A stretch of DNA of 8,463 bases from Candidatus Nanopusillus sp. (lineage in GTDB: Archaea > Nanobdellota > Nanobdellia > Nanobdellales > Nanobdellaceae): positions 1 through 8,463 of the forward strand of contig JBMSAQ010000033.1 in NCBI GenBank assembly GCA_049414405.1, read 5' to 3'. This document shows positions 1 to 8,463 of the stretch, piece by piece; position 1 is the first letter of the stretch, and each line of letters starts with the position of its first letter. The notes under the pieces were generated by a model. It did no database searches. It was not told where the DNA came from and was given only the letters and a program-made list of their open reading frames with translations. A program made the position numbers and the translations under genes.

Positions 1-1
1 G

Positions 2-3000
2 GGAAATTCTAATAAAACCATATATTTATGGTACGGAAACCCAAACGCTATAAGTTTAAGTAACGGAGATTTGGTTTTTGAATTCTTTGATGATTTTAAT
101 GGAAATACTTTAGATACATCTAAATGGACTGTGAATGGTTATGTGGGGTTTCGAGGAATTTTTTATAATGTTTCGAATTCAATACTTACAATATGGTCGG
201 ATAATAATTGGAGAATTTTAAGAATGAATAGAAATTTTGGACCGAATGATATGATAGTTATTGAGGTAAAATTTAGTAAAACAGCAGATAGTGATTGGCA
301 TACTAACTTTTTAATACAACATAATAGTGATAATAATAGGTTTGGATTTGTTGATATAGGATATTCTGGACTAAATATGGGGGTATATTATATGGTTAAT
401 AGTATAAATTATTATCCAAAAAATTTTGGTCTATTTTCTAATAATGTATGGTATATTTCGAGAATTATAAAAAAGAATAGTACCACTTTATATGTAGATG
501 CTTTAGCTTCAAATAGGACTCTTATTAATTCATATGAAACTATACAATCTGCTTGGTCATCTATAACATGGACTTGGGTTACAATACATGGTGGAAGTAC
601 AGGATATGTGCATGTCAGGTATGATTGGATTTTTGTTAGAAAATATACAAACCCAGAACCAATTGTATTTGTAGGTCCTGAATATATTGATTTTTATGTT
701 ACCATAATAACAAACAACCAAATTATTCCAACCCCGTCCCCATTCCAGCAACAAATAGCAATATGTAACGGAACAATAAATATCGGTCCTAATTTTGCTT
801 ATGTAAATAATCCAACATTATTTAATCAAATACACCCAGATGGTAGAAATGTATATTTTACTACGAATTATGGCGATATTCCCAACATATATTCATGGTA
901 TGCGGGACAATTTATACATGGAAATACACAATGTAAGATTTGGTGGATAAGATTAGATAATGAAATCCCAGCTAATGGTAATATTACGATTTATATAGCA
1001 ATATCTGACCTTAATACAAATTTTTATTCACTATATTATCCATATGTTGGTGCTTCTCCAAATGTATTTCCATCTAGACAATATGATAATGGTAGACATG
1101 TATTTATAGTATATGGATATTTTAATAATACGTTTGATGGTTGGACTGGACACATTTATGCCAGATCATACCCCACAGCTACTTCCTGGGGTATTCAAAT
1201 GTTATACAACAACTTTTATACGGGTACTTATATCTTACCCCCCAACAATGGAAATATTCCTTTAATATCTTTAATTGTTGAAGAAGCATGGTATTTTACC
1301 CATGGTGGACATGCCAACGTAATAGCATTATTTGGAAATACAAGTAATATAATTAATACTAATGTAATAAGTGGTGTTTCTGGATGTTACGCGCCAACAT
1401 CTCACTCATCCACATTTGTACAATTTCAATATAATAGAGGAGAATATACAAGAATAATGTCTGCAGTAACAAATAGAATATTAAGTAATACACATTTTGC
1501 ATATGGGGGTAGGACAATTTATTCATATTTAATACTTACCCCATCATATGTCGAAGCTGGGTATTATATTTATAATTTTAGTCAAGTATGGGTTCCATTA
1601 ACATTATTAAATACATATAGAACATATGTTCACGGATCTACTTATTCTTTTTTAGATTATAATCCTTTCCAACATGGCACATTGTTAATAGGTGCGGGGG
1701 ATTGTTACGATTCCACATCACACCAATATATACAGTGGGTAATAGCCAGAGCATATCCACCATATGGTGTAATGCCATCTTTTTCAATTATAAAACTATT
1801 AACACCCGATCTATTAATAAACACATCAACAAATTTCCAATTTAATGTATCTATATATAACCCATTTTCCGAATATGTAAATTATACGGTATATTTAAAT
1901 AGTTCTATATTAACAACTAATAATGTATCAGTAAATGCATTCCAAGCCTTAATAATTCCATATGAATTTCCTTATTTATTTAATCAATCGGGTGCTTATA
2001 ATTTAACTGTAATAGCATATGGACAAACCTCTAGAGTCACATCTATTTCAACTGCTATATTTAATATTCAATTAGATCAATTAAATGTAACTTTAGAACC
2101 TTATTATACTTATAATAACGTAAATTATACAAACCTTTATAATTCAAACTTAAGGATAACCTATTATTGCATGAGGCCAAATAACACCTTAATAATTTAT
2201 AATAATATAACAAATAGAACATTGCAAATTAATCTTTCATGTAATTACATACAAACAATAAATAATTTGATGGTTAACCTTACCCCAATTTTACAAAATA
2301 ATACTTTAAATCATATTAACGGATCGTTATTATATGGTAATCAATCATTTAGAAATATGAGCTTTATGCCATTATGGGGTACTTTAAATGTGACCTTATT
2401 TACAAATATTCCGGGAATTTCAATATATACATCACCATTAAGTTTAAATTATTCTATAAATGTAAGAGATGTTCTACCAAATGTTGTATGTAATATTACA
2501 TTATATGATAATAATACAATTGTGCAAACACATCAAACAACATTAACAAATGCTTCATCACCAACATATTCATGGACTATATCACAAGCACCAATACATA
2601 ACCTTAGGTGGTATATTTATTGCTATAATCCAGTAAATTTAACATATATTATTGATCAAAGAAATGGTACTTTTTACTATAATAGATTTGATTTTAGAAT
2701 GGAAGATAGTGGAAATATGCCATCAAATATATCTTATTCATTATCAATAGCATGTAATAATGATACTACTGTTTTTAGAAACCCAAATATGAATACTTAT
2801 ACGATATATGCATGGACTAATGATCAATGTGGCTTTATATTAGTATCACAAAATATACAGGGTATTGCTTATAGTATGGGTTATAGTACTAATTTATTAT
2901 CTAGATATGCATATCAATGGACTTTATGTCTATTAAATCCATCATTAGCTTACTTTAATAATCCATTAATAGGTCAAAATCAATATTTAGATACTTTAAT

Positions 3001-4198
3001 TGCTTTAGCAAATCCACAAGCAGGATGTTATTTATTAGGATCTTATTTATACTTATATTCATCTAATGTTTATTATGCACCAGTCCCTGTAAGAATTGGC
3101 GCTTTATATTCTATAAGAGTAAATAATACATTCTTAACAACAGTCCAAGGCCAACAACAACAAGCAATATCTATAGATAATCTTATAGCCCAATCAATTC
3201 TACAAAATAATAGAACTGTTTCAGTAATTGCTGAATTTCCAGTTATAAATGTTACAAACATATCTTCTAATGTATATCAATTAACAGTAACAGCTCCAGC
3301 AAGAATTTCTTCAGCAAATATAATTATATATTATAATGATACCCTTTATAGAAATTATACAATAAACTCTATAGGTACAAATAATTTTACTATCTTATTA
3401 ACAGAATTACCAGAAAATTATACATTTAACTTAACTAATTATATGATTATTACAATAACTTATGAAAATGGATTTGTTCAGCAAATGATTTATCCACCAA
3501 ATGTTCTTAATAATAGGATAACATTACCAGCATTTATGGTTTATTTAATAGCAATTTTCATATTATATGCATGGACTAGAGCATTTTCTTATTATCAGAG
3601 GTTAATAATAGCTGGATTTGGACTAGTTTTATTCTTAATACTTATGTCTATGGTTGTTCTTCAAACAACAGCTCCATTAGTTTTAGCTGCAGGTATCTTC
3701 TTCTTATTCTTATTAGATATGGCTTATACTGAATTTCTTTCTAGATTTACTGGAGAACACCCACTATTAAAACCTTTAAGTTTTTTAATAAGAATGTTTA
3801 TAATAATGACGTTTATAACAAGTGTTGTAGGAGTATTTTTCGGACCCTATGGAATTTATAATTTAGGAATACCTACCTTAAATGATTATATGTATGAAGT
3901 AAATAATACAATTAATAAAATAAATAATACAATAATACAAATGACTAAAAATCCATTCTTCTTCGTTATAGGTTTTATAGAACTTGCAATAAACTTAATA
4001 TATGCAATATCTTTAGGAATTAAGGGAGCAGGAGTATTTATTTCGTTATTTATAGTGCCATTAGCATCAATATTCGGACCTGCAGCAGTATCTGTAGCTC
4101 AAGCAATAGTATCAATAGTATATTTTGGAGCCATAATAGCCATATTGGTATATTTAACTTCACTAGTATTCTCGGCCGTTGGATTAAGACCTTTCTAA
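2..4198 (+). CDS. Giant secreted/membrane-anchored glycoprotein (adhesin or spike-like), 5'-partial. It has lectin modules, a sequon-dense stalk and a C-terminal ~7-TM domain.
   Basis: The frame of the 71..4198 ORF stays open back to nt 2. Nt 2-70 translate as GNSNKTIYLWYGNPNAISLSNGD, so the TTG at 71 is an ORF-caller artefact and the true start lies upstream of the window. The run ...YLWYGNPNA..S.. then VFEFFDDFNG..LD.SKW matches the junction usually seen between a DUF2341 domain and a ConA/LamG-like domain. A 4.1-kb uninterrupted ORF is very unlikely by chance in AT-rich DNA where stop codons are frequent. The stop is TAA at 4196-4198. Confidence 0.88.
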   Translation, partial: GNSNKTIYLWYGNPNAISLSNGDLVFEFFDDFNGNTLDTSKWTVNGYVGFRGIFYNVSNSILTIWSDNNWRILRMNRNFGPNDMIVIEVKFSKTADSDWHTNFLIQHNSDNNRFGFVDIGYSGLNMGVYYMVNSINYYPKNFGLFSNNVWYISRIIKKNSTTLYVDALASNRTLINSYETIQSAWSSITWTWVTIHGGSTGYVHVRYDWIFVRKYTNPEPIVFVGPEYIDFYVTIITNNQIIPTPSPFQQQIAICNGTINIGPNFAYVNNPTLFNQIHPDGRNVYFTTNYGDIPNIYSWYAGQFIHGNTQCKIWWIRLDNEIPANGNITIYIAISDLNTNFYSLYYPYVGASPNVFPSRQYDNGRHVFIVYGYFNNTFDGWTGHIYARSYPTATSWGIQMLYNNFYTGTYILPPNNGNIPLISLIVEEAWYFTHGGHANVIALFGNTSNIINTNVISGVSGCYAPTSHSSTFVQFQYNRGEYTRIMSAVTNRILSNTHFAYGGRTIYSYLILTPSYVEAGYYIYNFSQVWVPLTLLNTYRTYVHGSTYSFLDYNPFQHGTLLIGAGDCYDSTSHQYIQWVIARAYPPYGVMPSFSIIKLLTPDLLINTSTNFQFNVSIYNPFSEYVNYTVYLNSSILTTNNVSVNAFQALIIPYEFPYLFNQSGAYNLTVIAYGQTSRVTSISTAIFNIQLDQLNVTLEPYYTYNNVNYTNLYNSNLRITYYCMRPNNTLIIYNNITNRTLQINLSCNYIQTINNLMVNLTPILQNNTLNHINGSLLYGNQSFRNMSFMPLWGTLNVTLFTNIPGISIYTSPLSLNYSINVRDVLPNVVCNITLYDNNTIVQTHQTTLTNASSPTYSWTISQAPIHNLRWYIYCYNPVNLTYIIDQRNGTFYYNRFDFRMEDSGNMPSNISYSLSIACNNDTTVFRNPNMNTYTIYAWTNDQCGFILVSQNIQGIAYSMGYSTNLLSRYAYQWTLCLLNPSLAYFNNPLIGQNQYLDTLIALANPQAGCYLLGSYLYLYSSNVYYAPVPVRIGALYSIRVNNTFLTTVQGQQQQAISIDNLIAQSILQNNRTVSVIAEFPVINVTNISSNVYQLTVTAPARISSANIIIYYNDTLYRNYTINSIGTNNFTILLTELPENYTFNLTNYMIITITYENGFVQQMIYPPNVLNNRITLPAFMVYLIAIFILYAWTRAFSYYQRLIIAGFGLVLFLILMSMVVLQTTAPLVLAAGIFFLFLLDMAYTEFLSRFTGEHPLLKPLSFLIRMFIIMTFITSVVGVFFGPYGIYNLGIPTLNDYMYEVNNTINKINNTIIQMTKNPFFFVIGFIELAINLIYAISLGIKGAGVFISLFIVPLASIFGPAAVSVAQAIVSIVYFGAIIAILVYLTSLVFSAVGLRPF
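86..661 (+). other. ConA/LamG-like lectin (jelly-roll) module 1 within the giant ORF
   Basis: The module starts at FDDFNGNTLDTSKWTV and ends at YDWIFVRKYTNPEP. The opening F-DDF-G..L...W and the closing W..VRKY...EP are the usual boundaries of Laminin_G_3/ConA-like domains that follow DUF2341. This is motif recognition only. Confidence 0.6.
740..1015 (+). other. DUF2341-like module (second copy; the first lies mostly upstream of the window)
   Basis: The peptide FQQQIAICNG...HPDGRNVYFT...IYSWYAGQF...CKIWWIRLDNEIPANGNITIYIAIS matches the DUF2341 pattern as I recall it: an (r/q)xpItI start, dG.d.rF, yWie, a.vWVkvp.ipa.g..tIyiyy. Confidence 0.5.
1100..1768 (+). other. ConA/LamG-like module 2
   Basis: VFIVYGYFNNTFDGWTG ... 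YIQWVIARAYPPYGVMP repeats the opening (vF..y..F.dgW) and closing (W.i.R.Y.P) signatures of module 1. The giant protein therefore carries a duplicated [DUF2341-like][lectin] unit. Confidence 0.45.
1808..3520 (+). other. Beta-rich, sequon-dense, lysine-free stalk region (probably several Ig/CARDB-like domains)
   Basis: This covers aa ~580-1150 of the track ORF. It shows alternating hydrophobic/polar beta-strand patterns, for example FQFNVSIYNPFSEYVNYTVYLNSS...GAYNLTVIAYG. By hand count 36 of the ~46 N-X-S/T sequons lie here, and the region contains no Lys at all. Confidence 0.55.
3527..4180 (+). other. C-terminal polytopic membrane domain (~7 predicted TM helices)
   Basis: Hydrophobic stretches lie at aa ~1153-1172, 1177-1198, 1200-1216, 1236-1258, 1295-1316, 1319-1335 and 1342-1369. 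The only long polar loop (aa 1259-1294) carries two NNT sequons. That fits an extracellular position if the ectodomain is outside. Confidence 0.7.
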
Positions 4199-4199
4199 A

Positions 4200-4580
4200 A
4201 TGGATCAATTAAATGTTACAGCTATTGGAACTGAATTAATAAATTTAACAGATACAATAGTAAAGTTAATTACATTTAAAGATATTTATTCTTACATCCT
4301 TTTAGAAATATTAGTTATAGCTTTTTATATAGCTATGGAAAGTAATAGAGTAGAAAGTATTAAAACTTTGGTAATGGGTATAATGATTATTATGTGGATA
4401 TTTTTAATTGCAATATTAGCGCTTAATAGCATAGGATATATAAACATTACTGGACCACAGCTATATACTTTCTTTATGATGCCTACAGTATTAGTAACAG
4501 TAATAGCTTTAATGTTACCATTGTTAAGTTATTATAAAGGTTCTGGAGGCTCAGACTTTCAAAGACCTCCTTCTCTATAA
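4200..4580 (+). CDS. Small integral membrane protein (3 predicted TM helices, N-out/C-in)
   Basis: The ATG lies 1 nt after the TAA of the giant ORF (taaAatg). TM segments lie at aa ~29-46, 55-76 and 88-110. Sequons (NVT, NLT) sit in the N-terminal tail and NIT in the TM2-TM3 loop, both on the same predicted (outer) side. I recognised no family. Confidence 0.72.
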   Translation: MDQLNVTAIGTELINLTDTIVKLITFKDIYSYILLEILVIAFYIAMESNRVESIKTLVMGIMIIMWIFLIAILALNSIGYINITGPQLYTFFMMPTVLVTVIALMLPLLSYYKGSGGSDFQRPPSL

Positions 4581-5914
4581 TGATGAAGATTGAAACCTTA
4601 CAAGATATACGTAAATTAACATCTCAAGATCTTTTAAATGTTTTTAAAGAAACGAGGGTATTTCAGATTACTTTAAATAAAGTATGGGCTAATAGAACGG
4701 ATATTAAAAAAAGATTTATAAATCCAATAGATTTTATAGAGAGTACATCTAAAGATATAGCTGATGCTATTAGTGCGCCAATTGATGAGGATTATTGGTT
4801 AATTATTTTAGGAGAACCAGGTACGGGTAAATCAGCATTATCTATTGCTTTCTATAAATATATAATGAAGCATTTAGGTTATACAGATGAACAAATTAGA
4901 GAAAACATATATTTAGATGTATGTTATCTCCCATATGATTATATAGGTAGAATAAATTTACATAGTAAACAAATTCAAGAAAGAGGTCGTATATTTCCTT
5001 ATCCAATTGTATTAGATGAAGCTCATAATATGTTTGATTTATTTGCAGAAGGAGCTACGGGTATTGCGAGAAAAATACTTCAGAGAATTTTTGAAATTAG
5101 AGAATACAGATTAGCACACATAGTTAATACCCAAATACCAAGGCAATTAGCAAGTAGATCTAGAGAAAGATTTCATTCATTAATAGTTTTATGGAAAGAA
5201 CCAATATATATCGGAGAGGGTTCTACGCCACTTATGGAAGAATTGTATCTCAGTTATACCAAAAATATATTAAAAAAGGATATTGGTGATGGTAAAATTG
5301 GTTACTTTTTATGGGGGGCTTTTTACAATAAAGAAGTAACACATTCTATAATGAGATGGGTAATAAAACATCAAATTAGTATTGAAGAAGTTAGACCAAT
5401 TCTAAAGAAATTTACTCCAGATTTTTTCTTTCCTATGCTTTTATTATTACATGAATCTACAGAATTAAGAAAGGTTTATGCAGAAATCAAATTATATAAT
5501 AATTCTATAAAATCTTTATACGATGCTTTTGGAATTAAAGGCAGTAAGAAATCTACTTTCTTAAAAATATTAGTAGAATTAGGCAAAAATATAAATAATA
5601 TAAAAGATAAAAAAGATTCTAAAGGTAATTATATAGTAGATCCCTCAATTTCGGTAAGAGTTGATAATGAAAAAATAGTAGAAGCATTACAATATATAGG
5701 AAATGTATCTAAAGAATATGTGTATGAAGAATCTATAGATACTGATCAAAATATTAAAGTTGAAACTTATAAACGCATTAAAAGAATTATCCATGAAGAA
5801 TATTATACAAAAATAAAATCAATTCATCCCGATATTTATTTCTTCTTAAAGAATAACTATTATATAATTGAAAAAAGAGCTAAATTACATGCTGCTACCG
5901 GTTATCAACTTTAG
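4580..5914 (+). CDS. P-loop NTPase (AAA+-like / Zot-like ASCE ATPase) with an uncharacterised ~240-aa C-terminal region
   Basis: The start overlaps the upstream stop (TAATG, 4578-4582). Motifs seen are Walker A GEPGTGKS, Walker B PIVLDEAH, and then HIVNTQIPRQLASRSRERF (sensor-1 Asn/Thr plus an Arg-rich box resembling AAA+ box VII, or the TQ....R.. motif of Zot/pI-type ATPases). There are no TM helices. Confidence 0.9.
   Translation: MMKIETLQDIRKLTSQDLLNVFKETRVFQITLNKVWANRTDIKKRFINPIDFIESTSKDIADAISAPIDEDYWLIILGEPGTGKSALSIAFYKYIMKHLGYTDEQIRENIYLDVCYLPYDYIGRINLHSKQIQERGRIFPYPIVLDEAHNMFDLFAEGATGIARKILQRIFEIREYRLAHIVNTQIPRQLASRSRERFHSLIVLWKEPIYIGEGSTPLMEELYLSYTKNILKKDIGDGKIGYFLWGAFYNKEVTHSIMRWVIKHQISIEEVRPILKKFTPDFFFPMLLLLHESTELRKVYAEIKLYNNSIKSLYDAFGIKGSKKSTFLKILVELGKNINNIKDKKDSKGNYIVDPSISVRVDNEKIVEALQYIGNVSKEYVYEESIDTDQNIKVETYKRIKRIIHEEYYTKIKSIHPDIYFFLKNNYYIIEKRAKLHAATGYQL
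4811..4834 (+). other. Walker A (P-loop) GEPGTGKS
   Basis: Codons gga gaa cca ggt acg ggt aaa tca read directly from the sequence; this fits the GxxGxGK[ST] consensus. Confidence 0.95.
5006..5026 (+). other. Walker B IVLDEAH
   Basis: Codons att gta tta gat gaa gct cat give a hydrophobic strand followed by DE, about 60 aa after Walker A. Confidence 0.9.
5120..5173 (+). other. Sensor-1 / arginine-finger-like motif IVNTQIPRQLASRSRERF
   Basis: It lies ~35 aa after Walker B. The pattern hh.(N/T)(T/Q)......L.SR.R.RF resembles AAA+ sensor-1 plus box VII (compare RuvB ...ATT....L..PLRDRF and RFC ...LASRC). Confidence 0.55.
5871..5876 (-). terminator. Oligo-T (T6 on the minus strand) terminator candidate for the 138-aa membrane protein gene
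   Basis: A6 on the + strand at 5871-5876 gives CTCTTTTTTC on the minus strand, ~19 nt downstream of the minus-strand stop (5895-5897). It lies inside the NTPase coding sequence. Confidence 0.4.
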
Positions 5915-6311
5915 CTTTTAATTTTTGTTTTATTTTTATAGCTAAAAGATATATTAAATTAGCTGCAGGAATTGATAATGCATATACAATAACATTATAA
6001 TCTAAAATATATAAAAATGTCGCAATACTTGTAATAATTGCGCTATATATAATTAAATATATAATTAGTATAAATTGTGGTTTTTTTACATATTCTATTT
6101 TATATATTTCATTAGATAAGATTAATAAAGATAAATCATCATTAAGGTCTCCATAAGTTTTCTTAAGTTTTTCTTTTTTCTTATTATAATATGCATCAGC
6201 CATTCTATTGGATATATTCAATATTTTTTTTACAGCTTTATCACTGCTTAAAATAAGAGAAACTATAAAGCCTATGATTAAAGGAACCAACCATTGTAGA
6301 AAATATGCCAT
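5895..6311 (-). CDS. Small membrane protein (N-terminal TM, Lys-rich cytoplasmic linker, two C-terminal TMs)
   Basis: This is a 138-aa ORF. TM segments lie at aa ~4-22, 78-103 and 106-125. A TTTTTATA box on the minus strand sits 22-29 nt upstream of its ATG. The 3' end overlaps the NTPase gene by 20 nt. I recognised no family. Confidence 0.6.
   Translation of the reverse strand: MAYFLQWLVPLIIGFIVSLILSSDKAVKKILNISNRMADAYYNKKKEKLKKTYGDLNDDLSLLILSNEIYKIEYVKKPQFILIIYLIIYSAIITSIATFLYILDYNVIVYALSIPAANLIYLLAIKIKQKLKAKVDNR
5916..5937 (+). terminator. Oligo-T terminator candidate for the NTPase operon
   Basis: Runs T4, T5, T4 and T5 (cTTTTaaTTTTTgTTTTaTTTTTa) start 2 nt after the TAG at 5912-5914. 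Archaeal RNAP terminates at oligo-T tracts. The tract lies inside the Lys-rich C-terminus of the convergent gene. Confidence 0.55.
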
Positions 6312-6332
6312 ATATTATAAAGCACATAAAAG

Positions 6333-6340
6333 TATAAAAA
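6333..6340. promoter_or_regulatory. Shared TATA element in a 51-bp divergent intergenic region
   Basis: The + strand reads TATAAAAA at -30..-23 relative to the ATG at 6363. The minus strand reads CATAAA-TTTTTATA at -29..-22 relative to the ATG at 6311. Both spacings fit leaderless archaeal transcripts. Confidence 0.55.
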
Positions 6341-6362
6341 TTTATGGTTACATATATATAAT

Positions 6363-6824
6363 ATGACTACTTCAGAAGAATTTTTTAGGGAATTTTCATG
6401 GATTGATGAATTTATTTTAATTATACTCTATCTGAATGATAGAAAATTATCAAAACAAAAACTTAAGGAATTATTTTACTTTATCTATAAAGATCTAAAA
6501 GATAAAAATTTTTATGGATATTTAGAATTCTATATTAGTTTAAATACAAAAGAAATTTTAATATTTGAATCAAGTAGTGAAGCAGAATTGGATGATATAC
6601 TTTATAATTTATATTCAGAAACAGATCTTATAGATATAGATATTTTTGCAGATAATAGCATTATTTATCTTACAGATAAAGGTTATGACGTTGTAAAAGT
6701 TATTGTTAATGATCCTAAATATAAAGATGATATAAATCTTATTATGAAGATTATAAATCAATATAAAAATTTATCAGAAAAAGAATTATTTGCTTTGATA
6801 TTAGAAGATCTAAAATATAAATAA
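6363..6824 (+). CDS. Hypothetical acidic protein, possibly with a winged-helix domain
   Basis: This is a 153-aa ORF with a TATA box at the leaderless distance. The pattern IDEFILIILYLNDRKLSKQKLKELFYFIY ... SIIYLTDKGYDVVKVI resembles a helix-turn-helix plus wing (y.LT.KG). The call is by eye only and the family is unknown. Confidence 0.6.
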   Translation: MTTSEEFFREFSWIDEFILIILYLNDRKLSKQKLKELFYFIYKDLKDKNFYGYLEFYISLNTKEILIFESSSEAELDDILYNLYSETDLIDIDIFADNSIIYLTDKGYDVVKVIVNDPKYKDDINLIMKIINQYKNLSEKELFALILEDLKYK

Positions 6825-6865
6825 AATTATATATTTTCTTATAGTTATAATTTATAATTTATTAC

Positions 6866-6872
6866 TTTTTTT
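6866..6872 (+). terminator. T7 terminator candidate after the 153-aa gene
   Basis: acTTTTTTTaaaa lies 42 nt after the TAA at 6822-6824 and immediately upstream of the next promoter. Confidence 0.5.
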
Positions 6873-6883
6873 AAAATTTATAA
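6873..6883 (+). promoter_or_regulatory. BRE/TATA core promoter (AAAA-TTTATAA) of the 157-aa gene, leaderless spacing
   Basis: TTTATAA at 6877-6883 lies at -29..-23 relative to the A of the ATG at 6906 and is preceded by an A-rich BRE-like tract. There is no SD motif. Confidence 0.6.
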
Positions 6884-6905
6884 GTATAAAATTATAATAA
6901 TAGTT

Positions 6906-7379
6906 ATGGACCCTAAAATAAAGTTATTAATAGAATTAAAAGAAGATATAAAAAAATTTGAATCAGATCTTGGATTTTTAGGAGGAATTGCAGCAGGAGC
7001 TATAGAAGATTTAAAAAATAAAGTCTACAAAAGAGATGAGGATCTTTATGAAGTACTTAACTCTTTAAATAATATCGAACGTAGACTTACTATTACACTT
7101 GCATCAATGATTAAAAAAGCAAGTATATTGGCTTATTATAATTCTACGATGGGGGAATTAGTTCATCTTCTTAATAAATTAGGACCGTATCTTAATTATA
7201 TAAATAAAGCTATATCAAAAGCAATAGTTAGCTATAGAAATAATCCAACTTATGGTATAAGAAATGTATATAGTGCTTTAAGAGAAATTCAAAACTATGC
7301 AGTAGCTATGATGGAAGAAGTAGAAAAAATTATACGTGAGTATATAAATAAATATATAAGTTTCTATTTATTATCATGA
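6906..7379 (+). CDS. Hypothetical all-helical protein (paralog A)
   Basis: This is a 157-aa ORF with its own promoter and terminator. Heptad-like, helix-favouring composition runs throughout. It shows weak but colinear similarity to the next gene. Confidence 0.65.
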   Translation: MDPKIKLLIELKEDIKKFESDLGFLGGIAAGAIEDLKNKVYKRDEDLYEVLNSLNNIERRLTITLASMIKKASILAYYNSTMGELVHLLNKLGPYLNYINKAISKAIVSYRNNPTYGIRNVYSALREIQNYAVAMMEEVEKIIREYINKYISFYLLS

Positions 7380-7408
7380 CATAACAACCCCAAGGAATAA
7401 ACATTTAA

Positions 7409-7434
7409 TTTTTGCAATACTTTTATTACTTTTT
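7409..7434 (+). terminator. Oligo-T terminator candidates after the 157-aa gene
   Basis: T5 at 7409-7413, T4 at 7421-7424 and T5 at 7430-7434, lying 30-55 nt after the TGA at 7377-7379. Confidence 0.5.
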
Positions 7435-7490
7435 AAAAAAGAAAAAGCAGTATTATATAAATTATAAAGCTAAAAGTTTGAATATGTCAT

Positions 7491-7501
7491 AAATTTTATA
7501 A
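7491..7501 (+). promoter_or_regulatory. BRE/TATA core promoter (CATAAA-TTTTATAA) of the 145-aa gene, leaderless spacing
   Basis: TTTTATAA at 7494-7501 lies at -30..-23 relative to the ATG at 7524. It is nearly identical to the minus-strand promoter at 6333-6348 (CATAAATTTTTATA) and similar to the one at 6873-6883. Confidence 0.6.
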
Positions 7502-7523
7502 ATTTAAAAGTAGATGTTTTATT

Positions 7524-7961
7524 ATGATGTGGGGTTATCTAAATAAGATAGGATCTATTGAAGAAGAAGTTGAAGAAGCTAGAGAAGATTTAGAAGCATT
7601 ATATCTTATTATAGATTCAATTAAAAGAAGTATAGAAACTAGAAATTATACAAAGGAAGAACTTATAGAAAAGCTTTATAGGATACAAAGATATACAGAT
7701 ACATTAAGCTTATCTCTTAGATTGGTATATAGAAAGATACAAAAATATGATCCGATGAATATAGCTACATTAAATGTTATAGGTGGTCTTTTGAATGATA
7801 CTTTTAGGATAAGTATGGCTTTTGGAGAAATATTAAAATACTTTTGGAAAAATCCTGTACAAGACATAGAAAATCTATATAGAACTTCAGTATGGAGTTT
7901 AGAAATTTTAGAAAAAGCTAGAAGGGATTTGGCTATGATTATAGGAAAAAGAATATTATAA
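7524..7961 (+). CDS. Hypothetical all-helical protein (paralog B)
   Basis: This is a 145-aa ORF. The promoter spacing favours the first ATG (7524) over the second (7527). It is colinear with the 157-aa protein (see findings). Confidence 0.65.
   Translation: MMWGYLNKIGSIEEEVEEAREDLEALYLIIDSIKRSIETRNYTKEELIEKLYRIQRYTDTLSLSLRLVYRKIQKYDPMNIATLNVIGGLLNDTFRISMAFGEILKYFWKNPVQDIENLYRTSVWSLEILEKARRDLAMIIGKRIL
7946..7950 (-). terminator. T5 (minus strand) terminator candidate for the methyltransferase gene
   Basis: A5 on the + strand at 7946-7950 lies 13 nt downstream of the minus-strand stop (7963-7965) and inside the 145-aa gene. Confidence 0.3.
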
Positions 7962-7962
7962 A

Positions 7963-8463
7963 TTAATAATTAGATACAAAAATAAGAGTCCACGTTTTCT
8001 TTTTTTCGCCTTTTTTCTTTTCCATAGATTTTTTCTTTTCTAATTTTTCAATTTTATAGTTTTTTAATATATCTTTAATAAGATTAAAAGCTTTATCATC
8101 AACTTTTAACAAAAATTTTCCTTTAATTTTTGTTAATATGTTTGCCATATCTCTGATATCTTTAATAGTAAATGTAATCCCATAATAATTATCAGATCTA
8201 TCTGGATAAGGAGGGTCTAAATAAAAAACTGTTTTTTCACTATCATATAATTGAATAACTTTTCTAAAATCTAAATTTTCGATTATTATATCCTGCCAAT
8301 TTTTTGTAAAATCTAAAATAGCCCTTATTTTTTTTCTAAAGGCTCTTGCATCATTTCTTTTTGGATTAATTACACAACTAAATCCTTTTTTAGGTCCACC
8401 CATAAAAGATGTGTTTACTAAATAGAAAAATAAAGCTGCAGCTTCTAATTCACCTAAATTTCT
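7963..8463 (-). CDS. N6-adenine DNA methyltransferase, D12 class (Dam-like), 5'-partial (N-terminal AdoMet-binding half is off the window)
   Basis: The minus-strand frame is open beyond the track's Met at 8403 to the window edge (RNLGELEAAALFFYLVNTSFMGG...). The layout matches Dam-family proteins as I recall them: AALF.YL(N)...F.G, then ~55 aa, then (V)FYLDPPY (catalytic motif IV), then ~80 aa including a hydrophobic strand (GKFLLKVDD) and a basic tail. Confidence 0.85.
   Translation of the reverse strand, partial: RNLGELEAAALFFYLVNTSFMGGPKKGFSCVINPKRNDARAFRKKIRAILDFTKNWQDIIIENLDFRKVIQLYDSEKTVFYLDPPYPDRSDNYYGITFTIKDIRDMANILTKIKGKFLLKVDDKAFNLIKDILKNYKIEKLEKKKSMEKKKGEKKKTWTLIFVSNY
7995..8016 (+). 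terminator. Oligo-T terminator candidate for the 145-aa gene, embedded in the convergent methyltransferase gene
   Basis: T4 at 7995-7998, T7 at 8000-8006 and T6 at 8011-8016 on the + strand. These are the complement of the Lys-rich tail (EKKKSMEKKKGEKKK) of the minus-strand gene. Confidence 0.45.
8206..8217 (-). other. Catalytic DPPY motif (motif IV) of the N6-adenine methyltransferase
   Basis: The + strand ataaggagggtc has reverse complement gac cct cct tat, which encodes D-P-P-Y. Confidence 0.9.

Follow-up and report, generated by a model that had tools for sequence, protein, structure and literature searches.

What is a protein for that carries two lectin-like heads on a long stalk and ends in about seven hydrophobic helices? 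The question is posed by an AT-rich (19–32% GC) stretch of 8,463 nucleotides from Candidatus Nanopusillus sp. (assembly GCA_049414405.1, contig JBMSAQ010000033.1, positions 1–8,463), which was analysed whole and is called the window here. Its first gene occupies the frame 2–4198 of the forward strand, an uninterrupted run of 1,398 codons with a stop codon at 4196–4198 and a 5′ end cut by the window edge. The product has four parts: two successive head units (A and B), a stalk and a hydrophobic C-terminal domain, referred to below as the tail. With a probability of roughly 60%, we read the gene as encoding the receptor-binding spike (a terminal fibre or adhesin) of a virus that belongs to the group of Nanoarchaeotal virus 1 (NAV1) and infects Nanoarchaeota such as Nanopusillus.

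Unit A opens with the C-terminal half of a DUF2341 β-sandwich (residues 1–44; nucleotides 2–133, forward strand). Pfam recognizes it as PF10102 at residues 2–44, with an E value of 1.2e-12 and 48.5 bits against a gathering cut-off of 23.4. Because the match spans positions 41–83 of a profile of 84, the window edge must cut the domain short, and its N-terminal half and the signal peptide fall beyond that edge. An earlier note on this DNA, made from the letters alone, had pointed to this missing N-terminus; it is supplied by P0001, a full-length homologue of 1,513 residues (93% identity) from a 23.5-kb metagenome contig, in which a complete DUF2341 domain (107.6 bits) follows the signal peptide MIKKFLKLFGIFFLIFFSYNVYS. 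The remainder of the unit is a ConA-like jelly roll (residues 45–230; 134–691, forward strand), starting at VFEFFDDFNGNTLDTSKW and ending at DWIFVRKYTNPEP. A profile built from 22 archaeal relatives, in which FDDF, W and DW..VRKY are invariant or nearly so, matches jelly-roll enzymes of family GH16 among PDB entries (porphyranase A, 4ate, E = 1.4e-6, profile positions 108–285). Catalytic residues are present in the GH16 enzymes but replaced in unit A, where the E-x-D-x-x-E motif (SEIDVIEH in porphyranase A) aligns to R-F-G-F-V-D (R-x-G-x-x-D); this replacement argues for a putative binding module and not an enzyme. Unit A is 28–45% identical to DUF2341 units of Aenigmatarchaeota, Thermococcus, Methanosarcinales and others.

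Unit B (residues 231–605) has the same arrangement in divergent form: a DUF2341-like β-sandwich (residues 231–334; 692–1003) and an L-type-lectin-like jelly roll (residues 368–584; 1103–1753), both on the forward strand, with the unit closing at QWVIARAYPPYGVMP. Comparing the two units by hhalign gave a probability of 95.5% in local mode (E = 1.5e-8) and 97.4% in global mode (E = 3.7e-11, 293 columns), against E values of 0.4–0.7 for reversed and shuffled controls. Pfam finds no DUF2341 match in unit B of the window and weak ones in 4 of 37 relatives (best E = 2e-4); we regard the sandwich as a probable remote DUF2341 homologue, lying below the family threshold. The AlphaFold model of unit B, made from 37 sequences, has a predicted local distance difference test score (pLDDT) of 74.8 overall and 85–94 in the jelly-roll part, and shows seven strands at its residues 1–104 (the sandwich) followed by the jelly roll. 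Foldseek matches this model to L-type lectins in the PDB (VIP36, ERGIC-53 and legume lectins; E ~1e-7, probability 1.0), with 175 PDB matches at E ≤ 1e-3 and target-normalized TM-scores of 0.55–0.69 for the top lectins. Sequence identity to the L-type lectin structures is 6–11%. The kinship of the heads thus runs through a shared ConA-like jelly-roll fold for the L-type lectins and unit B, and through profile similarity for GH16 and unit A.

The duplicated DUF2341-plus-ConA-like arrangement that the earlier note had proposed is confirmed, with the second DUF2341 domain as a probable remote copy, by Pfam in unit A, by hhalign with its controls, and by AlphaFold and Foldseek for unit B. The paired motifs from which it had been read are indeed the aligned ones (IWVKVP..IYLWYGNPNA with IWWIRL..IYIAIS, VFEFFDDF with VFIVYGYF, and DWIFVRKYTNPEP with QWVIARAYPPYG). 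Among the families it had named for profile searching, DUF2341 was recovered and the ConA-like part was matched as a GH16-type jelly roll, but Laminin_G_3 and CARDB were not found by Pfam: the window protein has no Laminin_G_3 or Laminin_G match at E ≤ 1 and no CARDB match, and the Laminin_G_3 matches of relatives sit in other regions of those proteins. The lectin assignment therefore rests on profile and fold evidence.

The heads are followed by a stalk of 560 residues (606–1165; 1817–3496, forward strand), rich in Asn, Thr and Tyr. It holds 36 of the 47 N-x-S/T sequons of the protein, where 2,000 composition-preserving shuffles gave an expectation of 14.4 ± 3.1 (z = 6.9; 0 of 2,000 reached the observed count), and neither the heads nor the tail are enriched. 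No family in Pfam or PHROGs matches the stalk, which is common only to the viral homologues P0001–P0013, the NAV1 protein NV1_37 included. Such a density of sequons fits an exposed, heavily N-glycosylated shaft, the glycosylation being predicted.

The tail is a polytopic hydrophobic domain of 228 residues (1171–1398; 3512–4195, forward strand), delineated by hydropathy, AlphaFold and an alignment of 13 proteins, and contains all hydrophobic 19-residue windows of the protein. Its predicted helices lie roughly at residues 1175–1193, 1200–1219, 1226–1247, 1260–1284, 1318–1338, 1344–1362 and 1369–1393, with an external helical loop (1285–1317, two sequons) between helices 4 and 5. The AlphaFold model (pLDDT 58.8) is helical throughout, with about seven spans and one loop helix. 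Positive charges fit a seven-span topology with the N terminus outside and the C terminus inside: the four predicted inside short loops plus the C terminus hold six or seven Lys/Arg, against none in the two outside short loops. The long stalk and the seven-helix C terminus are thus as real as the earlier note had held them to be, and conserved: in 13 proteins from independent JGI, ENA and NCBI contigs the tail is fused to the same stalk, with tail identities from 27% to 100%. Asp1239 in helix 3 (codon 3716–3718) is invariant in the 13-protein alignment and becomes Glu in one fragment, P0064. Gly1359-Pro1360 is also invariant, and Pro is conserved at helix starts.

Stalk and tail connect the protein to a named virus. 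Over residues 606–1398, which make up 57% of the query at its C-terminal end, the protein shares 64% identity with NV1_37 of NAV1 (MN056826.1; UniProt A0A5P9U552), and the two tails are 71% identical. NV1_37 is a true homologue that also shares 57% identity over the first part of unit B, but it is without unit A, its single head has a different jelly-roll half and its first stalk domain is duplicated. The gene neighbours of NV1_37 and the window protein are the same. In four loci (L001, which is the contig of P0001, L002, which is NAV1, and the more distant contigs L006 and L007), the order runs from a giant protein through a small two-helix membrane protein to the spike gene, and then to a downstream pair that encodes a membrane protein of 110–128 residues and a P-loop nucleoside triphosphatase (NTPase) of 419–448 residues. 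Taken together with the similarity to NV1_37 and P0001, this shared gene order points to the window being part of a NAV1-like virus genome. NAV1 was reportedly described from Yellowstone hot springs by Munson-McGee and colleagues (J Virol, 2020), and is said to have been recovered from virus-enriched metagenomes as a circular genome of 35.6 kb assigned to Nanoarchaeota. To our knowledge no other virus group of Nanoarchaeota has been described, and we know of no NAV1 gene with an assigned role in entry. The NV1_37 family is public, having been deposited without a function; as far as we found, it has no published discussion, the original NAV1 papers not having been consulted.

On the constant stalk and tail, the head modules are shuffled. 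Both units are present in the window protein and P0001, unit A only in P0003, and unit B only in P0002 and P0008–P0011. Variation also occurs within a head. Comparing the window with Ga0209740_1000052, the contig of P0001, places 231 of the 233 differences over 8,463 aligned bases inside a hypervariable cassette of ~770 bp (1032–1800, forward strand) that covers the unit B lectin domain. DNA identity in the cassette is ~73%, with indels; the other ~7.7 kb contain 2 differences. The window allele recurs, identical, in an independent ENA contig (k141_86145), and cassette DNA is ~70% identical to three chromosomal paralogues of Nanopusillus acidilobi. A diversity-generating retroelement was considered as the source of the cassette and rejected, given the indels, the differences at 27% of positions, the single copy (a second was looked for in the window and contig L001) and the lack of a reverse transcriptase. 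Cassette variation is the pattern expected of a host-range determinant; head shuffling and cassette variation together are behaviour typical of such determinants, and we count them in favour of a spike.

Chromosomal surface proteins of N. acidilobi and Nanobsidianus stetteri likewise begin with a very similar signal peptide and unit B, at 55–60% identity in protein and about 70% in DNA. N. acidilobi (CP010514.1; L003, 5910–14883) has three tandem paralogues of 590, 1,052 and 1,215 residues, and N. stetteri has one such gene (L004, 8001–10460); all four begin with the same signal peptide and unit B. The locus is syntenic, lying between RNase J and a tRNA synthetase and beside T2SSE/T2SSF, a type IV pilus-like ATPase/TadC pair. 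Such cellular DUF2341 proteins (Nps_03075 of N. acidilobi, Nst1_264 of N. stetteri) share unit B and the signal peptide with the window protein, but they end in one hydrophobic helix or none, have unrelated stalks and possess no seven-helix domain. Viral and cellular copies are interleaved in a neighbour-joining tree of the jelly-roll domain, built without support values, which suggests repeated exchange of the lectin domain between virus and host; the viral unit B would presumably be host-derived.

A spike of comparable layout is known from the fuselloviruses. In Sulfolobus spindle-shaped virus 19 (SSV19), VP4 comprises a glycan-recognizing core, a β-sandwich and a C-terminal three-helix bundle, on which the hydrophobic hairpin capsid protein VP1 stacks, with tetraether lipids in the clefts; VP4 is heavily N-glycosylated at NxT sites (PMC9351363). 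VP4 of SSV1 (C792) has a signal peptide and a hydrophobic C terminus of ~75 residues with three helices, and is followed by small hydrophobic genes. Fusellovirus VP4 and the protein studied here are alike in having a signal peptide, a large β-rich ectodomain with a glycan-recognizing module (predicted here) and N-glycosylation (predicted here from sequons), a hydrophobic multi-helix C terminus and adjoining genes for small hydrophobic proteins. They differ in that the VP4 glycan module is a GH76-like α/α barrel, whereas the heads described here are jelly rolls, and in that the VP4 tail has three helices (~75 residues) against about seven (228 residues). It is on this parallel, and on the small two-helix proteins encoded around the gene, that we base our reading of the protein as a receptor-binding spike; most likely it functions in the manner of VP4-type adhesins of archaeal viruses, although it is not homologous to VP4. 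The earlier note took a single helix or a lipid as the normal anchor of adhesins and viral spikes, which is too strong for archaeal viruses, as the three-helix tail of SSV1 VP4 illustrates, and the architecture is less exceptional than it held.

As a spike, the protein would have the N-terminal ~1,270 residues of its full-length form (1–1170 of the window frame) exported by the signal peptide. The two tandem heads, each a DUF2341 sandwich with a non-catalytic ConA-like jelly roll, would bind glycans on the target-cell surface, carried there by the 560-residue, heavily N-glycosylated stalk. The tail of about seven helices would be embedded in the virion's hydrophobic shell or its lipid layer, fixing the spike to the particle as the C-terminal three-helix bundle fixes fusellovirus VP4, and probably beside the small hydrophobic proteins encoded around the spike gene. 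Specificity would be varied by swapping whole heads between relatives, and by replacing the unit B lectin domain as a cassette from a pool shared with host surface proteins.

Several points weigh against this reading. The presence of the protein in the virus particle is something that we infer. The comparison with VP4 is one of analogy, since there is no similarity in sequence or fold; among 50,697 phage and archaeal-virus records, SSV1 included, a tblastn search with the stalk and the tail gave no VP4 homology. The tail is more than twice the size of the VP4 anchor and has an invariant acidic residue and Gly-Pro; its conservation exceeds the needs of a passive anchor, and its model is of low confidence (pLDDT 58.8). 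No relatives of the tail occur in IMG/VR. The capsid type finds no match either: ten further proteins of L001 have no family in Pfam or PHROGs, and none of the genes matches a known capsid family.

These features of the tail also feed the strongest competing explanation, in which it would be an active membrane device (a channel, a fusion machine or a DNA conduit) triggered by receptor binding at the lectin heads. We consider this unlikely. In its favour, the tail is much larger than a simple anchor requires, and is maintained down to 27% identity with its invariant Asp, its Gly-Pro and its helix-start prolines; the gene also appears translationally linked to those for a small membrane protein and an NTPase. 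There is a bacterial precedent in DUF2341 fused to polytopic, ion-driven membrane proteins of the MotA/ExbB type (PMC12505986), a fusion to MotA/ExbB/TolQ that is also the subject of an InterPro note, as excerpted in PMC11003980. Those proteins resemble the spike in joining a DUF2341 ectodomain to a polytopic membrane domain, but theirs has three or four helices against about seven. A MotA/ExbB/TolQ identity of the tail was rejected: Pfam gives no match, and an ExbD/TolR/MotB-like partner is lacking, the 126-residue neighbour having no such family.

Against an active device stands the failure of the tail to resemble any channel, transporter, MotA/ExbB or fusion protein in Pfam, PDB sequences, profile search or Foldseek. 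None of the 13 members has a Pfam match in the tail at E ≤ 10, and no PDB sequence matches it. A tail profile searched against 1.84 billion representative proteins returned 7 matches, all of them this family or its fragments, and the host chromosomal loci hold nothing similar. Foldseek found no significant PDB fold match for the low-confidence tail model (pLDDT 58.8), and NV1_37 was the sole significant match among predicted viral structures in BFVD (E = 3e-22). The tail is an orphan domain, with no detectable relative outside its family by sequence or fold. The internal repeats that many transporters show are absent from it, a duplication being rejected by hhalign between helix groups (E = 0.05–0.75). 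Conserved Asp1239 is placed by the predicted topology toward the cytoplasmic end of helix 3 and not in mid-membrane, and SSV19 VP4 provides a documented case of a multi-helix tail with a structural role. Two other proposals for the tail were also rejected: that it is a chain of capsid-protein-like hairpins, or kin to the small hydrophobic proteins of the virus (L001 profile scores ≤ 5 bits), and that it exists as separate short genes, the short database entries being fragments that start at internal Met codons. The channel or transporter body envisaged in the earlier note thus gained no significant match outside the family from Foldseek or sequence searches, and its coupling of binding to fusion, pore opening or DNA passage is conjecture; we keep it as a weakened possibility in view of the size and good conservation of the tail and the poor quality of its model.

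It is quite unlikely, in our estimate, that the protein acts outside the virion, residing in the membrane of the infected nanoarchaeon and altering the cell surface. There it could mimic a host adhesin and so hold the infected cell on its crenarchaeal partner, block superinfection or form an exit structure. A polytopic domain is a normal way of sitting in a cell membrane, and unit B with its signal peptide closely copies (55–60%) the chromosomal surface proteins found by the pilus-like ATPase/TadC pair. These cellular relatives of the head belong to the external proteins of Nanoarchaeota, a fast-evolving class in which non-synonymous changes accumulate and which is suspected of bringing about contact with the crenarchaeal partner (PMC6142677). 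Set against this, the gene sits among those for small hydrophobic proteins and a giant protein, in a conserved block that resembles a structural module; receptor-binding proteins typically show such head shuffling and cassette replacement; and the VP4 analogy holds. A place in the cell membrane and one in the virion are compatible, since it is in the cell membrane that membrane-derived virions acquire their spikes.

A more ambitious combination, which we find just as improbable as residence in the cell membrane, would have the lectin head shared with host proteins bind the same ligand as they do (perhaps crenarchaeal glycans) and the tail serve as a new fusion or DNA-conduit device. If this were true, the virus would find its host through its host's host.

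That the element is not a virus at all but is plasmid-like or conjugative, with the adhesin, the polytopic protein, the small membrane protein and the NTPase forming an apparatus for cell-to-cell transfer, seems very improbable. No capsid gene is recognizable, IMG/VR gives no match and no similar DNA or protein occurs among the 50,697 phage and archaeal-virus records; the NTPase, moreover, has a stand-alone chromosomal homologue in N. stetteri. However, the closest named relative was deposited as Nanoarchaeotal virus 1, relaxase, VirB4 and VirD4 families are not detected in the window and related loci (Pfam and PHROGs), and many archaeal viruses are without recognizable capsid genes. Two exact-pattern scans of species-representative genomes for an integrated provirus found nothing. 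Finally, the caveat that the tail might be a separate gene, joined by a frameshift or assembly artefact, is excluded for practical purposes by the continuous frame and by the same fusion in 13 proteins from independent contigs.

The genes downstream of the candidate spike are closely packed. A membrane protein of 126 residues with 3–4 hydrophobic segments (4200–4580, forward strand; open reading frame (ORF) list and hydropathy) starts 2 nt past the spike stop codon (4196–4202), and its own stop codon overlaps by 1 nt the start codon (4578–4582) of a 444-residue P-loop NTPase (4580–5914, forward strand; GEPGTGKS, IVLDEAH). This near-contact and overlap of stops and starts suggests that the three genes are translated as one unit. 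The NTPase has weak P-loop matches in Pfam and PHROGs, to DnaC/DnaA-like families only, and aligns weakly with the DnaA-like ATPase B251 of SSV1 (pairwise BLASTP, E = 4e-4). A 53%-identical homologue stands alone among cellular genes on a 158-kb contig of N. stetteri (L013, 10001–11317), and a 100%-identical copy lies on a 113-kb contig of an NCBI metagenome-assembled genome labelled 'Candidatus Nanopusillus sp.'

Convergent with the NTPase gene is a membrane protein of 138 residues (5895–6311, reverse strand; ORF list and hydropathy), whose position is kept in L001 and NAV1. Three small proteins of no assigned function are among the downstream genes. Two adjacent ORFs encode helical proteins of 157 and 145 residues (6906–7379 and 7524–7961), and their weak mutual similarity (pairwise E = 0.016) leaves room for the idea that they may be distant paralogues. 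The window ends within a D12-class N6-adenine methyltransferase (7963–8463, reverse strand), cut by the 3′ edge; the listed ORF of 146 residues is its C-terminal part only, the whole gene in L001 encoding 303 residues. Searches of the window for tRNA genes, Rfam families and repeats gave nothing of note.

Upstream of the spike, related loci extend the picture. The giant protein lies two genes before it and measures 1,124 residues in L001 (6229–9603) and 2,082 in NAV1 (L002, 3430–9678). Its N-terminal third is rich in Ser, Thr, Asn and Gln, its middle in Gly and Ala and its C terminus in Arg, Glu, Tyr and Pro, and it matches no family in Pfam or PHROGs. Between the giant-protein gene and the spike gene, L001 carries a gene for a two-helix protein of ~120 residues. 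Small proteins that begin and end with a hydrophobic helix and have a loop rich in Asn and Gln are encoded in L001 at 5281–5703 and 9615–10004; they recall the hairpin capsid proteins of spindle-shaped archaeal viruses, with no family match.

With this protein, the NAV1 group gains a concrete candidate for receptor binding. One of its predicted binding heads comes from the same gene pool as the host external proteins suspected in contact between nanoarchaeon and crenarchaeon, and the lectin domain of that head moves as a cassette between genomes that are otherwise the same. Head binding is open to direct test: a Nanopusillus–Acidilobus co-culture exists, and the surface sugars of the partners differ, N. 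acidilobi being labelled by wheat germ agglutinin and its Acidilobus host by concanavalin A and Dolichos biflorus agglutinin (PMC4935971). A structure of the orphan tail would reveal either the way in which an archaeal virus particle holds its spike or a new entry device. Orphan tail, host-derived head and cassette together offer an entry point into the biology of an ectosymbiont's virus.

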